This document shows, in pieces, positions 25,179 to 31,374 of a stretch of DNA of 64,000 nt. The stretch lies in IMG/VR virus record IMGVR_UViG_3300020055_000004; one strand, 5' to 3'. Below the pieces are notes generated by a model, which worked only from the letters and a program-made list of their open reading frames with translations, was not told the origin of the DNA and searched no databases. The DNA comes from a virus. Both the position numbers and the translations under genes were made by a program. Every line of letters starts with the position of its first letter. Position 1 is the first letter of the stretch.

Positions 25179-26093
25179 ATGAACGATTTCGCATCGCTAA
25201 AATCCTCTCGCAAGTCACAATTCGACAAACTCAGCGCAGCTGCTGAGAAAGTTAGTGGCAATCAATCTCAATCCAATGGACCAGACGAACGATTCTGGAA
25301 ACCAACAGTCGATCAGGCTAAAAATGGTTCCGCAATCATTCGCTTCCTACCTGCACCAGCTGGTGAAGACGTACCCTTTGTTCGTTATTGGGATCACGGC
25401 TTTCAAGGTCCTGGCGGTTGGTACATTGAAAAGTCTTTGACTTCGATTGGTCTCGACGATCCTGTCGGCGAGTATAACTCCAAACTGTGGAACTCTGGCC
25501 TTGAGTCTGATAAAGAGATTGCACGTAAGCAGAAGCGCCGCCTTCACTACGTTGCCAATATCTTGGTTGTCTCTGACCCTGCGGCACCACAAAATGAGGG
25601 CAAAGTGTTCCTCTATGAGTTTGGTAAGAAGATCTTTGACAAAATCAATGATCTTATGCATCCTGCCTTTGAAGACGAAGACGCAATAAATCCTTTCGAC
25701 TTCTGGGAAGGTGCTAACTTTCGATTACGTATTCGACAAGTTGAAGGATATCGCAACTATGATAAGTCTGCGTTCGACTCACCATCTGCAGTATCTGATG
25801 ATGATGCCGAGCTCGAGGCATTATGGAAGCGTCAATATCCTCTTGCAGAATTGATCGATCCCAAAAACTTCAAGTCATATGAAGAACTTCAACAGAAGTT
25901 GAATCGTGTACTTGGAGGCCAGCAGGTTAATGCAGTTGCTGAAGATGTACCTAGCGCAGCTCCTGTAGCCCCATCCGAGGCTCCTGCTTGGCAACCTCCT
26001 GTTGATGATGTTGTGCCTCAGGTAGAAGTTAGTACATCATTCGATGACGATGATGAATCACTTGACTTCTTCCGTAAGTTGGCTAATGAATAA
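25179..26093 (+). CDS. 32: Single-stranded DNA-binding protein gp32
   Basis: DERFWKP, IRFLPA, GKKIFDKI, GANFRL and NYDKS motifs; acidic tail. Confidence 0.96.
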   Translation: MNDFASLKSSRKSQFDKLSAAAEKVSGNQSQSNGPDERFWKPTVDQAKNGSAIIRFLPAPAGEDVPFVRYWDHGFQGPGGWYIEKSLTSIGLDDPVGEYNSKLWNSGLESDKEIARKQKRRLHYVANILVVSDPAAPQNEGKVFLYEFGKKIFDKINDLMHPAFEDEDAINPFDFWEGANFRLRIRQVEGYRNYDKSAFDSPSAVSDDDAELEALWKRQYPLAELIDPKNFKSYEELQQKLNRVLGGQQVNAVAEDVPSAAPVAPSEAPAWQPPVDDVVPQVEVSTSFDDDDESLDFFRKLANE

Positions 26094-26218
26094 GCTTGGG
26101 AAGCTGGTACTCTGGGGGCTTCGGCCCCCTTTTTTATGCAGGTACCACAACCGGTACCAATAAGATGATAACGATCTACTTCTGATTCTCTAACTGCATG
26201 ACATATACACAGATACAT
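26018..26218 (-). CDS. Minimal Bfd-like [2Fe-2S]-binding protein
   Basis: MYLCICH...GTGCGTC; TAATG coupling to the upstream gene; 3' part overlaps gene 32 in antisense. Confidence 0.6.
   Translation of the reverse strand: MYLCICHAVRESEVDRYHLIGTGCGTCIKKGAEAPRVPASQAYSLANLRKKSSDSSSSSNDVLTST
26114..26136 (+). terminator. Intrinsic terminator with C(UUCG)G loop
   Basis: GGGGGC-TTCG-GCCCCC followed by a T-run. Confidence 0.9.
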
Positions 26219-28905
26219 TATGAGTATAGACGACCAGCACCATCGAGGAAATGATCTGCTGTACTGATAGATGATACTGCGGTCCCTATTGCTTTCTTTG
26301 CAGTATTACCCGCGGCTTCACCAATTGTTTGAGTACCTTGCATTACAGGCATCATGATAGGAATAATTTTTTGAGCTGTTTCTCGTGTCTCACCTTCAAG
26401 TTCTGGCATTACTTCATTATTAAGTACGGCTTTGATCATACGAGTAGTGTCGCCACCACCACCAGCAAAATCTATGGATTCGCGAATTACACTTTGACTG
26501 ACACCGGTTTCATCAGAAATTTTACGTCTTACAACACCACCTTTAATAATACGATTTAATTCTGCTTTAGCGTCGCCACCACCTAGCAAAACATTAATAC
26601 CACCCATTACACCTTGGCGCATTAATGGATCTTCGAAACCAATATTTTGATTAGCAACCTTACGCGCAACTCGGACACTAGATCTTTCATCTTCAGCAAT
26701 AAAATCTGCTATAGCATCATCTTCTAGAAGATCTTGCATCAACATTTGTGCTGCTTTATTAGGTGTCTTCTTCGCTGATGTCACGGGAGTGCTAGCTGGT
26801 AGTTCTTCTAACTCAGCCTGCGTGACTCGGACACTAGATCTTTCATCTTCAGCAATAAAATCTGCTATAGGATCATCTTCTAGAAGATCTCGCATCAACA
26901 TTTGTGTTGCTTTATTAGGTGTCTTCTTCGCTGATATTTCTTCTTGTGGTTCGGGCTCAGCGAAGTCTACACTTTTAGTTAGCTCTTTTTCTTGAACAAC
27001 TTCTTCCTGAACTTCATCACTAGTACTAAGAGGTGGCTCAGGTATAACACCAGATCCTATTTTTGGCGTTTCTTCTTTTACGACTAATTCGACCGGCTCG
27101 TCTTTATTGGCTTCCACAGTTTGCAAGTGTTGCTGTACATCTTCTACACTGGCATTTTCAAAGTCTGAAACTTCATCTTCTGTTATATTTAGCATTGAGG
27201 CAGCTACCGTACGACTATCAGGTTTTCTTGCCCATGCAACCCAAGCATCTATTTCCGCTTGGCTTATTTCTTCGTCTTCATTGGTTTCCACAGGAGCAGT
27301 AGAAGGTATTTCAGCACCACGCAATGGTGCACCTCGTTCTACACTACCAATTTTCCATTCATCACCATATTGATCTACAAAAACACTTTCTTTTGGTGCT
27401 GGTGCACTATCTTTTGGTTCTCTATTTTCAATATATTGAGCAGTTAGCATATCCATAATGCTTGTCATACCGTCTGTACCTAATGCATCAGACAGCGCAT
27501 ATACGATAGGACGATCATATTCTGCTTTATATTCATCGTCTAATTTTAGAAAATCATCATATGTTTTTACTTTCTTAAAGAATGATACAATGTCTTCTGG
27601 ATCTTCGGCTGTATCAAAATAACCTTCGCCTAATAGATCTCCAAGTAATTCTGCTCCTTGTTTATTACCATATTTTTCACGCATGGCTGCATCATCAGTG
27701 CCATTCGCAACATCAATTTCTTCACCTCTAAAGTGAGCAGCAATTGCACCTTCGATTGCATCTCCAAGTCCAGTGTGCTCATACAAGACTGTACCGGCAG
27801 TATATCCACCAACAAAAGCACCGGTTACTGCTGCGACTGGAGCTGCTAGAGCACCGGCTACTGTAGCACCAGCTGCAACCGCACCACTTCCCAATGCACC
27901 AGTTGATGCTAAAAGACCTGCACCTTGAACGGCGGCGGCTCCTAATGCAACATCACCAATAATTCCTGTTTCTTCGTCAGCGCGAACTACAGTATCTAAT
28001 ATAGATTCTTCGCTTTCTTCTTCACTTAGACCAGTATCATCGAATTCTGGTGGATCATCTATTTCTTCCTCGCCATCATCAGAATCATCAAGTAAAAGTG
28101 ATCCGACTGCAATACCCATAACACCGAGTATTCCCATACCCAACGTTGTAGTTGCAACTGCAGTAAAAGCTTTAGACGCGTCTAATAATGCCGAACCGCC
28201 TATACCGTCTTTTCCTTCAGCTTCTTCTTCATCACGACGTCTTTCATTGTCTCTTTTAGTTTTTTGATTTTCTTTTAATACTAATCCAAGTTTTTTAGCA
28301 ATCATTGCTAAGTTTTCATTGGTAGTATCTAGATCTGCGGTAACGATTGTCAGTTGTTGACGAAGATTATCGATGAGGGCATGAATATTACCAAGTTCTA
28401 ATATTCTGCTTGAAATGAATGTACCTGCTTTGATACGAGGATTTAAATCTTCCTGCAGATCATCTAATTCAATTGAAACGTCTTTTCTAATAATAAGACT
28501 TGAAAGATTCGCATCTGATCGATTAGCAGTAGATTCCAAACCTTCTAGGCTTGGCATTGCTCTAGCAAAAGCTTCCTCTAATCCTTCGAGTGTAATTACA
28601 GGATCATCTTTAGGTATTGGTTGTCCGGCTGTTTTATTACCCTGTGATGCACCTAATTTACCAGCTTTTGCATCCGCGGCACTACCACCTGCTGACTTGC
28701 CACTAAATAATTTGCCCATGATTCCGCCGATCGTACCAAATGCACCGGCGCCAACCATTTTTTTGACTTTATTTTTTACGGATTTTTTTGCAGCTTTACC
28801 AGCTTTTTTAGCACCTTTACCTGCAGCTTTACCCATCCATTTAGCGGCTTTGCCTGTCCAGCTAGCAACTTTTGATCCAACGCTTAAAATTCCTCCGACT
28901 GCCAT
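26218..28905 (-). CDS. Probable baseplate hub/tail-length tape measure protein (gp29-like)
   Basis: 895 aa, helical/coiled-coil with Gly-Ala hydrophobic stretches; downstream of gp26/gp51 as in aquatic T4-like phages; call mostly from synteny. Confidence 0.6.
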   Translation of the reverse strand: MAVGGILSVGSKVASWTGKAAKWMGKAAGKGAKKAGKAAKKSVKNKVKKMVGAGAFGTIGGIMGKLFSGKSAGGSAADAKAGKLGASQGNKTAGQPIPKDDPVITLEGLEEAFARAMPSLEGLESTANRSDANLSSLIIRKDVSIELDDLQEDLNPRIKAGTFISSRILELGNIHALIDNLRQQLTIVTADLDTTNENLAMIAKKLGLVLKENQKTKRDNERRRDEEEAEGKDGIGGSALLDASKAFTAVATTTLGMGILGVMGIAVGSLLLDDSDDGEEEIDDPPEFDDTGLSEEESEESILDTVVRADEETGIIGDVALGAAAVQGAGLLASTGALGSGAVAAGATVAGALAAPVAAVTGAFVGGYTAGTVLYEHTGLGDAIEGAIAAHFRGEEIDVANGTDDAAMREKYGNKQGAELLGDLLGEGYFDTAEDPEDIVSFFKKVKTYDDFLKLDDEYKAEYDRPIVYALSDALGTDGMTSIMDMLTAQYIENREPKDSAPAPKESVFVDQYGDEWKIGSVERGAPLRGAEIPSTAPVETNEDEEISQAEIDAWVAWARKPDSRTVAASMLNITEDEVSDFENASVEDVQQHLQTVEANKDEPVELVVKEETPKIGSGVIPEPPLSTSDEVQEEVVQEKELTKSVDFAEPEPQEEISAKKTPNKATQMLMRDLLEDDPIADFIAEDERSSVRVTQAELEELPASTPVTSAKKTPNKAAQMLMQDLLEDDAIADFIAEDERSSVRVARKVANQNIGFEDPLMRQGVMGGINVLLGGGDAKAELNRIIKGGVVRRKISDETGVSQSVIRESIDFAGGGGDTTRMIKAVLNNEVMPELEGETRETAQKIIPIMMPVMQGTQTIGEAAGNTAKKAIGTAVSSISTADHFLDGAGRLYS
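26669..26935 (-). repeat. 111-bp near-identical direct repeat (156-bp period) within the gp29-like gene
   Basis: Copies at 26669-26779 and 26825-26935 encode SAKKTPNKA[TA]QMLM[RQ]DLLEDD[PA]IADFIAEDERSSVRV. Confidence 0.9.
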
Positions 28906-29102
28906 TATAGATCCGCCACGCTAGTTTGATTTTTTTCTTTTTGTTTTTTTACTTTTGCCACAAGCATTTCTAAATACAACTCCCTTTCGAAAGGTATCAT
29001 ACTCTCTACTTCTGTCAAGGAAAACTTGTGGTACTGAGTTATATCAAAGCTTAGCTTATAATATGTGTAGAGGTCTATGTAACTCAGCCCAGCGTAAAAA
29101 AA
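28905..29102 (-). CDS. 51: gp51-like baseplate hub assembly module; no upstream start codon, probably reached by -1 frameshift from gp26
   Basis: FFYAGLSYIDLYTYYKLSFDITQYHKFSLTEVESMIPFERELYLEML...DL*; its TAA overlaps the ATG of the gp29-like gene. Confidence 0.75.
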   Translation of the reverse strand, partial: FFYAGLSYIDLYTYYKLSFDITQYHKFSLTEVESMIPFERELYLEMLVAKVKKQKEKNQTSVADL

Positions 29103-29794
29103 TCAGTGATACTCCTAAACACAACTCTTTTCTCTTTTCCTTGACTATTTTCGTACGTAACAACATGTTCAATTTTAGGTGAAGTCTCAAAAAAAGCACT
29201 TATCTTTTGATATGATTCGACGGGCAATGTATCAAGAAACATTGCTTTTTCATCATCTGGATAATTGTGCCATTCATAAATTTCATCATTATCAAATACT
29301 AAATCGATGCAGTGTAAAATAGTTTCATACAAAATATCAGTAAAGTTTTTTAAATCTTTTAGTTTTTCAGATAGTGATGGTGTAGGTGATTTTAAAGTTA
29401 CACCGATTGTATCAGTAATCATGATTTTATTTGTATGACCTTCAGGAAAAATAACCTCAACATCATCCAAATTTGTTTCTAAATCATACACGATACCGTC
29501 ATCACTATCTTCTACAGAAAATTTTACGATATTACTTACCGAATACGCCCGAAGTTTAATAAACAAATATTCTAAATCATATACAGGAATATTTTCAACA
29601 TTAAACTCTTCACTAAGTACACAGTTTTGTACTACTTGTTTTACTGCTGCATAGATATCCTTATCTTCCTTTGACTCTTTTGAGATAAGTAGAATCTTTT
29701 CTTCTTTAACCAAAAAAGGTCTGATAAGTATTTCTTTTTGTGTCGACGGTTGTACGATTGCAAAAGTCGGCGACTGTATTAATGGTAAACCCAT
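29084..29794 (-). CDS. 26: Baseplate hub assembly protein gp26
   Basis: LPLIQSP, RPFLVKEEKILL, DLEYLFIKLRAYSV; C-terminal DFF. Confidence 0.88.
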   Translation of the reverse strand: MGLPLIQSPTFAIVQPSTQKEILIRPFLVKEEKILLISKESKEDKDIYAAVKQVVQNCVLSEEFNVENIPVYDLEYLFIKLRAYSVSNIVKFSVEDSDDGIVYDLETNLDDVEVIFPEGHTNKIMITDTIGVTLKSPTPSLSEKLKDLKNFTDILYETILHCIDLVFDNDEIYEWHNYPDDEKAMFLDTLPVESYQKISAFFETSPKIEHVVTYENSQGKEKRVVFRSITDFFTLG

Positions 29795-29807: not shown

Positions 29808-30326
29808 TTAACTAATTTCAAATCTCGTAAATCTATAACTAACATTCAGTTTAGCAATATCATCTGTTTGACCCCAATTTAATGCTATAGGTTCAACAAC
29901 TGTAGGAAATGCTTCAATGAATTTAATCGTTTTTGCTAAATCACCCTTTCTATTATATACGAACACATTCATATCAATAGCATATTTAGCTAAATATTTT
30001 GCACCAAATTTTTGAGCTCCATCTAAATCAACAATTTCATTTGCCCATGCTCTATAGATTGCATATAAATCTGCTTTCTCATCCAAGAAATGATTCATCG
30101 AAACTTCTTGTGGCATATACTTATATGGAATATTATAGATTTTACCATTGCCATATGGAGAAAAATTATCTACCGACATAAATGCAACACCTGGCAGATT
30201 TACGCCTTCTGTTCTCAATTGCAATTCTTCTGTGCCACCGATTGGCGGTGCAATATTTACAGTAAAGGAATGTGAAGGCAAGGTGTCTTGCAATCTAGAT
30301 TTCCATTGACTGAGATTAATGGCCAT
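29808..30326 (-). CDS. Tail tube initiator/tail-tube-like protein (gp54/gp19 fold)
   Basis: VNLPG...EAFPTVVEPIALNW...LNVSYRF; synteny. Confidence 0.7.
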   Translation of the reverse strand: MAINLSQWKSRLQDTLPSHSFTVNIAPPIGGTEELQLRTEGVNLPGVAFMSVDNFSPYGNGKIYNIPYKYMPQEVSMNHFLDEKADLYAIYRAWANEIVDLDGAQKFGAKYLAKYAIDMNVFVYNRKGDLAKTIKFIEAFPTVVEPIALNWGQTDDIAKLNVSYRFTRFEIS

Positions 30327-30931
30327 TATTGTTGCCCTAAAATAAGTTTCTTAGAATCACGATATACACGTGATTTCTTACCTTTTCTAAATCTCTCTGT
30401 TGGTAACATCAGAGCGATATCCCATTCTTCATACGGTATCCATAAAAAGCGTGATCTAATATGGTTATTTAGATACCGTTTGACAGTAGGTCTAAAGTAT
30501 TTATATCTAGCTACGGAATTTAATAAACCATAACTTAGACGTAGTTTTTTTGATTCGCGAACTTGATCCATTCGTTCTATGGCATATAATCTATCCATCA
30601 ACCGAGCTCGGTATATCGGTGGCAAATAATGTAGATTCATACCAAGAAAACCATCATTATATCTTTCGAGAACGAAGATAAGAGGAAAGATGTCATAGTA
30701 GGGCAATGTTTCTTTGCCCTTTGGATCGTATTGAAACATATACATACGACCAACATCAAGCTCGGTCATTTTTTGAAATAGCCGTTCTTTGTTTCTTAAT
30801 TCGCGGCGTGTATTAACTTGTTTGACTGCACCTGCTGTATCTCTGTACCAGTCCCGTGCTTCTTCGTCACCAGGAAGTTGACCTTCGGCTTTACCTTGTT
30901 GTGCTATCTGTTGAAAGATATATGTTGCCAT
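30326..30931 (-). CDS. 2: DNA end protector gp2
   Basis: GRMYMFQYDPK..TLPYYD.FPLI...GMNLHYLP...LPTERF. Confidence 0.9.
   Translation of the reverse strand: MATYIFQQIAQQGKAEGQLPGDEEARDWYRDTAGAVKQVNTRRELRNKERLFQKMTELDVGRMYMFQYDPKGKETLPYYDIFPLIFVLERYNDGFLGMNLHYLPPIYRARLMDRLYAIERMDQVRESKKLRLSYGLLNSVARYKYFRPTVKRYLNNHIRSRFLWIPYEEWDIALMLPTERFRKGKKSRVYRDSKKLILGQQ
30498..30505 (-). promoter_or_regulatory. T4 late promoter TATAAATA (within gene 2)
   Basis: Exact consensus on the minus strand upstream of the tail-tube-initiator gene. Confidence 0.45.
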
Positions 30932-31374
30932 TAGAATTTAAGTCCTAGTTCTTTTTCTGTAATAATCACAAAATCCCATCCTCTACCCTTACAATATTTT
31001 CGAGCTTCGGTCCATTTCGCACTATTTACACCCCACGTCTTCACTTCATATAAATACTTTTTAGTGAGAGTTTTTTGCGGAGTTGGCTCTATGGTTTCTT
31101 TGAAAGGTTTAATTTCAACTACGACCACATCAAGTTTGCCTTCTCTGTTAATCTTTTTCACCCAAAAATCCGGATAGTATCGATGCATACGACCATCAAT
31201 AGGAGATCGATAAGGAATAATTAGTTCTTCACTTGCCCACTCATGGACATCAGGGTGGTCATCTAAATATTTCATGAACACCAGTTCCCATCGACTTCTA
31301 TAAATAATGTTGTGAGCGTCTCCTTTATACTTTACCGGATTACGAGGCTTGAAGATGCCCTTATAAGTCTTCAT
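30931..31374 (-). CDS. 4: Head completion nuclease gp4
   Basis: YKGD...YRSRWE, WASEE, RYYPDF, EIKP and N.AKW motifs. Confidence 0.92.
   Translation of the reverse strand: MKTYKGIFKPRNPVKYKGDAHNIIYRSRWELVFMKYLDDHPDVHEWASEELIIPYRSPIDGRMHRYYPDFWVKKINREGKLDVVVVEIKPFKETIEPTPQKTLTKKYLYEVKTWGVNSAKWTEARKYCKGRGWDFVIITEKELGLKF

Follow-up and report, generated by a model that had tools for sequence, protein, structure and literature searches.

A probable programmed -1 frameshift at the end of gp26 that would give a T4-like phage short and long tail chaperones

A single tail-assembly-chaperone gene of an uncultured T4-like phage, related to T4 gp26, very probably carries a programmed -1 ribosomal frameshift, which would give a pair of proteins of the G/GT type. 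The DNA examined, called the window throughout, is a stretch of 64,000 nt from the metagenome-derived IMG/VR record IMGVR_UViG_3300020055_000004, which is ~94 kb long and ~54% complete. An earlier note on this DNA had proposed that a -1 shift fuses gp26 to a start-less module resembling gp51. This is the best explanation of the locus, given the universal frame relation and slippery heptamer among relatives and a module that is kept from the first residue after the slip. We prefer the frameshift reading because, besides the universal frame and heptamer, no start codon of the module is conserved and T4 gp51 is an in-frame fusion of the same two parts.

The elements of the locus all lie on the minus strand. 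The coordinates in the earlier note for the gp26 end, the U7 run, the -1 open reading frame (ORF), the AGGAG and the stem were all reproduced:

29794..29084, minus strand: gp26-family gene, the short chaperone form (TAC-N), 236 aa and TGA; matches PF12322 and phrog_150.
29102-29096, minus strand: slippery heptamer U_UUU_UUU in X_XXY_YYZ register (GA-U UUU UUU), read in the sequence; present in 85/85 scored loci and four further lineages.
28905..29102, minus strand: extension in the -1 frame, seen by translation, encoding the gp51-type C-terminal module (FFYAGLSY...SVADL), 65 codons and TAA; matches phrog_634.
29103..29105, minus strand: TGA closing the -1 frame just 5' of the slip site; incidental and not conserved in relatives.
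29112..29116, minus strand: Shine-Dalgarno (SD)-like AGGAG, 9 nt 5' of the heptamer, from anti-SD duplex prediction.
29080..29087, minus strand: 5' arm of a downstream stem, CUGAGUUA, with the gp26 stop inside it and a spacer of 8 nt from the heptamer; from folding and covariation.
29034..29041, minus strand: 3' arm of the stem, UAACUCAG, closing a loop of 38 nt; from pairing conservation in the U7 clade.
26218..28905, minus strand: gene of 895 aa from the ORF list, whose start overlaps the -1 ORF at its stop; tape-measure-like from its position alone.

The gp26 gene ends in the codons GAT (29104-02), TTT TTT (29101-29096), ACG CTG GGC and TGA (29086-84), with the heptamer three codons 5' of the stop. 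The -1 frame is open over 29102..28908 (65 codons), and its TAA (28907-28905) shares a base with the ATG (28905-03) of the 895-aa gene. In this frame the earliest TTG is codon 29 and the earliest ATG codon 35, so that the first half of the module is without either start codon.

The gp26 ORF matched the Pfam family PF12322 (T4_baseplate) over residues 13-233 with an E-value of 3.7e-50 and 171 bits, against a cut-off of 24.5, and the PHROG family phrog_150, "baseplate hub", with an E-value of 2e-53. The -1 ORF matched phrog_634, "baseplate hub assembly catalyst" (E 1.9e-18), covering only positions 59-114 of the 121 in the profile, and it had a weak second match to the gp26 PHROG profile near its C-terminus (positions 243-278 of 282). 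Structure models of gp26 and of the -1 module were made as two separate parts. The AlphaFold2 model of gp26 had a predicted local distance difference test score (pLDDT) of 89, and the module alone was predicted to form three helices (pLDDT 78). In VIA-align, residues 1-95 of the gp26 model resembled three (pro)phage proteins of the tail-assembly-chaperone type, namely 3fgx (Z 8.0), the HK97 tail assembly chaperone 2ob9 (Z 7.5; 85 aligned residues, root-mean-square deviation 4.3) and YqbN, 3klu (Z 7.2). After these the scores fell to 5ir0, a protein of unknown function (Z 5.3), and then to 4.8. A Foldseek search of the gp26 model against the PDB gave no match at E <= 0.001. The resemblance is moderate but consistent, and suggests, in a supportive rather than decisive way, that the N-terminal domain of gp26 has the tail-assembly-chaperone fold; beta-rich extra domains follow residue 95. 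Together with the position of the gene, the match to 2OB9 supports a further proposal of the earlier note, that gp26 and its fusion product are the G and GT equivalents of this lineage.

The comparison with relatives covered five phage loci and 80 loci from IMG/VR, whose gp26 proteins are 33-57% identical to that of the window. Both gp26 and the module are present in 82 of these loci, and synonymous sites were counted on 82 non-identical loci. Comparison of the gp26 3' ends revealed that the U-rich heptamer and the -1 overlap are both conserved. U_UUU_UUY stands in X_XXY_YYZ register in 85/85 scored loci, 0-8 codons before the gp26 stop, and the module lies in the -1 frame relative to gp26 in 82/82 loci with both parts. 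The same arrangement was found in four further lineages, represented by Vibrio D484, Vibrio EniLVp02, Agrobacterium Atu_ph04 and Pseudomonas Astolliot.

In all 82 loci the codon before the run ends in T (GAT, AGT, AAT or TCT) and the first of the two Phe codons is TTT. Backgrounds for these two re-pairing synonymous positions were 0.51-0.75, which gives a P of ~1e-27, far from what chance would yield, on the assumption that the loci are independent. At its last base the heptamer has T in 50 loci and C in 32, a ratio at background (p 0.2). Invariant re-pairing positions combined with a neutral last base are what tandem slippage of two tRNA-Phe predicts. Phe-Phe pairs elsewhere in the gp26 bodies were slippery in 8/85.

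From the Phe-Phe on, the -1 ORF is always open across the compared loci, for 58-77 codons. Its peptide is kept from residue 1, with F1, F2, F19, P37 and E39 invariant, and the earliest possible start codon is scattered among the relatives from codon 4 to codon 46. A tblastn search with the 65-aa module matched 535 phage records, among them cyanophages, pelagiphages and phages of Methylophilales, Sinorhizobium, Vibrio, Agrobacterium, Caulobacter and Pseudomonas, and the match mostly begins within gp26, a few bases short of its annotated end. A nucleotide search of phage records with the locus as query returned no match.

Three predicted proteins among the metagenome representatives (P0003, P0020 and P0073) have the module in frame with the end of gp26. 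The junctions of P0003 and P0073 are exactly those that a slip predicts (...FF RISMAH... and ...FF LLILSH...). Indel errors, natural fused variants and slipped transcripts are all conceivable origins of these forms.

The module also occurs in T4. In the gp51 protein of T4 (249 aa), residues 1-201 are a complete PF12322 domain (E 3.9e-52). Of the tail behind it, residues 208-244 align with residues 10-47 of the -1 ORF of the window (E 5e-5). T4 gp26 (208 aa) is the PF12322 domain alone. It ends in GAG TTC TTT GAG TTA CTA TAA, keeping the Phe-Phe, on codons that are not slippery. Judged by its sequence, T4 gp51 is thus an in-frame version of the gp26-module fusion. T4 and the window share PF12322 as the common domain, a gp51 C-terminal module on the long form, and the logic of a short and a long form. 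They differ in that T4 has the two forms as two divergently transcribed genes, whereas in the window one gene with a slip site is proposed to give both. Leiman et al. (2010, PMC3004832) list gp26 and gp51 among the hub assembly chaperones of T4 and describe gp51 as essential, with its function unknown. In the passages of Sullivan et al. (2010, PMC3037559) that deal with gp51, the cyanophage and marine vibriophage versions are without the first ~200 residues, a feature that those passages leave unexplained.

The compared loci fall into two groups, a U7 clade, which includes the window, and a UUUUUUC clade, and the candidate stimulators of the slip differ between them. In the window, the arms CTGAGTTA (29087-80) and TAACTCAG (29041-34) are perfectly complementary over 8 bp, and the stem begins 8 nt 3' of the U7 run. 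It is present in the minimum-free-energy fold of 29095..29020 (-15.3 kcal/mol). Among the 44 sequences of the U7 clade, 91.2% of the cells are paired, compared with 14-36% when the 3' arm is slid, and five of the eight pairs change on both sides. Cells with double changes number 14, against 4.8 +/- 1.8 in shuffles, and 0/500 shuffles give as high a value. When all 6-bp complementarities over 190 nt were scanned without bias, the stem came out on top, trivial pairs between T-runs and A-runs aside. The stem noticed earlier in the window alone is thus conserved in place, with covariation, throughout its clade.

The UUUUUUC clade has a strong anti-SD match at -18 to -13 in 88% of loci. Its GGAGG is written in Leu-Glu-Gly codons. 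The Glu at that site is GAG in 15/18 loci, against 27% in the background (p 1e-6), and the Leu codons are biased to a final G. These codon biases point to selection of the SD-like element of this clade at the RNA level. A compact hairpin 5-6 nt after the heptamer occurs in some UUUUUUC sublineages, to which local hairpins are confined. The AGGAG of the window, with a predicted anti-SD duplex of -6.8 kcal/mol at -16/-15, shares its position with the selected GGAGG of the UUUUUUC clade. The window carries both types of candidate stimulator, the 8-bp stem and an SD-like element.

A single fixed hairpin for all clades was also considered and rejected, as RNAalifold found no consensus on gapless alignments and a fixed-position test did no better than slid controls. 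As a tentative and rather doubtful proposal, an invariant slip site may be driven by interchangeable, lineage-specific stimulators, a long-range stem in the U7 clade and, in the UUUUUUC clade, an upstream GGAGG that a compact hairpin sometimes accompanies.

Several points weigh against a programmed ribosomal slip as described here. We infer the slipping and the long protein themselves from sequence. A stem of 8 bp around a loop of 38 nt is weak by itself, the fold of the window has a z-score of only -1.76 relative to shuffles, and RNAalifold gave no consensus structure. The arms of the stem are largely conserved codons (Leu-Ser-His/Tyr and x-Ala/Thr-Gln). Since the sequences share ancestry, the covariation counts are not independent events. 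As for the internal SD of the earlier note, the AGGAG does lie 9 nt upstream of the heptamer in the window, but it is not conserved in the clade, where a comparable SD-like element occurs in 22% of loci, within the background range. Finally, the IMG/VR record holds only one PF12322 match, and with ~54% of the genome present a second, long gene as in T4 may exist.

Three other explanations were weighed against the frameshift. Of these, transcriptional slippage is the least improbable, although it is improbable. Here RNA polymerase would add one U on the T run, and a fraction of the mRNA would have the fusion in frame. The conserved element is indeed a homopolymer of 6-8 T, a one-base insertion yields the same product as a -1 shift, and the metagenome sequences P0003 and P0073 carry the exact in-frame fusion. 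Efficient slippage by bacterial RNA polymerase, however, usually needs a homopolymer of 8-9 or more. The run has 6 T in 32 of the 82 loci, 7 in 46 and 8 in 4, which is short for this process, and the last base, being C as often as in the background, argues against selection for run length. The run also always keeps the X_XXY_YYZ register, and the stem at 8-nt spacing and the SD-like element ~10 nt upstream are classic stimulators of ribosomal slippage. Sites of transcriptional slippage are among the subjects of the review by Atkins et al. (2016, PMC5009743).

It is more improbable still that the module is a separate small protein, initiated at CUG 29087, UUG codon 29 or AUG codon 35. Many records do annotate a separate "gp51" of 45-57 aa, and gene callers yield hundreds of such small ORFs at this locus. 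Their starts, however, are arbitrary and vary between phages, and some records annotate no gene at all, which makes the public annotation inconsistent; a joined frameshift coding sequence is given in 0/13 of the annotated phage loci examined. In the window and many relatives, the first start codon comes only after 20 or more conserved residues. Upstream of the slip site, the -1 frame is open for 0-34 codons in the relatives and is closed without a start codon in 81/85 loci. In T4, moreover, the module is known only as the tail of a gp26-type domain, and independent initiation would leave the invariant heptamer unexplained. The least credible explanation, to which we give hardly any weight, is an artefact or decay, with the U7 run as a homopolymer sequencing error in a truly fused gene or the module as a dead remnant. 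In its favour, sequencing errors are common in homopolymers, and the contig is an IMG/VR one derived from a metagenome. Against this, the frame offset is the same in 82/82 independent contigs and in isolate genomes, and the module is conserved at the protein level and always open for 58-77 codons. Two of the outcomes that the earlier note had named as fatal to its proposal, a frame relation that is not conserved and a U7 run produced by sequencing error, are both contradicted by this shared offset.

If the frameshift reading is correct, most ribosomes would read through to the UGA of gp26 and make the short form of 236 aa. A minority would pause with two tRNA-Phe on the UUU UUU of GA-U_UUU_UUU (29102-29096), slip back by one base and continue with UAC GCU GGG in the -1 frame. 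The predicted long form has 296 aa, made up of gp26 residues 1-233 and 63 residues of the helical gp51-type module, with the coordinates join(29794..29096, 29096..28908) and the junction peptide SITDFFYAGLSY, SITDFFYAGLSYIDLYTYYK. The pause signal in the window would likely be the 8-bp stem 8 nt downstream, and the AGGAG 9 nt upstream may add to the pause. The two forms would match gpG and gpGT of lambda as well as the separately encoded gp26 and gp51 of T4. The N-terminal chaperone domain shared by both forms would coat the tape measure or the hub, and the C-terminal module, present only on the rarer long form, would bring in a further component of the tail. The data show the layout of the locus, its conservation, the homology to T4 gp51 and the similarity in fold; how often ribosomes would slip, what the stem and the SD-like element do and which partners the proteins bind are inferences.

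Similar arrangements are known from other systems. Like the window, lambda gpG/gpGT has a -1 extension that lacks a start codon and reaches to the next tail gene, and both loci stand after genes of the tail-tube type and before a long gene, which in the window is called tape-measure-like from its position. They differ in that sequence similarity is undetectable and the common domain is larger in the window (236 aa). The heptamer of lambda is G_GGA_AAG, compared with U_UUU_UUY in the window and its relatives. For T4, the described role is in hub assembly, unlike that of the chaperones of the lambda type. Myophage P2 reportedly makes its tail chaperone pair E/E+E' by a -1 frameshift on the heptamer TTTTTTG, as Christie et al. 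are said to have described in 2002. By this description, P2 and the window are alike in a myovirus chaperone pair for which a T-rich heptamer is the known or proposed site of a -1 shift, and unlike in that the sequences are unrelated and the P2 protein is much smaller. Escherichia coli dnaX and IS911 combine an upstream SD, a heptamer and a downstream stem at spacings that match those of the window (9 nt up and 8 nt down). Unlike in these two, in the clade of the window the stem alone is conserved and the SD is not, and the stem closes a loop of 38 nt and is thus no compact hairpin. A summary of the -1 frameshift conserved among tail assembly chaperone genes (Levin et al. 1993; Xu et al. 2004, 2013, 2014) is given in PMC5009743.

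The principle of short and long chaperones made by frameshift in T4-like phages is already published, and the window is a further case of it. Vladimirov, Gautam and Davidson (Virology 2022;566:9-15), as cited in later papers, reportedly described short and long tail chaperones of T4-like phages with poly-T slip sites. The statement in the earlier note that such a shift had not been described for T4-type gp26/gp51 is out of date, to judge from how two later papers cite this work. Where it cites Vladimirov et al. [quoted passage not shown] In a literature search on gp26/gp51 frameshifting, none of the open papers found reported the slip itself. The clade-specific pattern of stimulators may go beyond published work. 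If true, such a swap between clades would bear on whether the shift is ribosomal, and it would be new if Vladimirov et al. 2022 left the stimulators unanalysed or argued for a non-ribosomal mechanism.

The upstream neighbour (29808..30326) is a tail-tube-like gene (PF06841, phrog_45), and the other neighbours encode gp48, gp32, a DNA end protector of the gp2 type and a TnsA-like endonuclease. The endonuclease gene (30931-31374, minus strand; PF08722, E 1.8e-22) lies between those for the end protector and gp48, and may be a mobile nuclease insertion within the block of tail genes. The 895-aa gene downstream of the module is called tape-measure-like from its position only. It matched no tape-measure family in Pfam, PHROG or NCBIfam; its protein had no similarity to T4 gp29, no tblastn match among phage records and nothing usable in the ESM Atlas. 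In HTVC008M and phiM12, the gene annotated as tape-measure-like sits one small ORF further downstream.

Within the 895-aa protein, a segment of ~37 aa (SAKKTPNKA.QMLM.DLLEDD.IADFIAEDERSSVRV) occurs twice, from residues 658 and 710 (window 26624-26934, minus strand), a repeat that Tandem Repeats Finder did not call. The Gly/Ala/Lys-rich N-terminus of the same gene contains a 21-nt tandem repeat of 2.2 copies (28786-28831). Next to the 895-aa gene lies a Cys-rich ORF of 66 aa (26018-26218, minus strand; MYLCICHAV...GCGTC), whose start overlaps the stop of the 895-aa gene and whose 3' end overlaps gp32 on the opposite strand. By eye it resembles a Bfd-like [2Fe-2S] motif, but Pfam gave no match at E <= 0.01.

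The public annotation of this locus is wrong or missing. For the window, the correction would be two products from one gene, of 236 aa and, as predicted, 296 aa. A fusion at the slip site would also explain the start-less "gp51" fragment of ~20% of the T4 length in cyanophages, pelagiphages and marine vibriophages, a puzzle since 2010 according to the gp51 passages of PMC3037559. With a frameshifted gp26, T4-like phages would conform to the rule, general among long-tailed phages, of a tail chaperone in a short and a long form.

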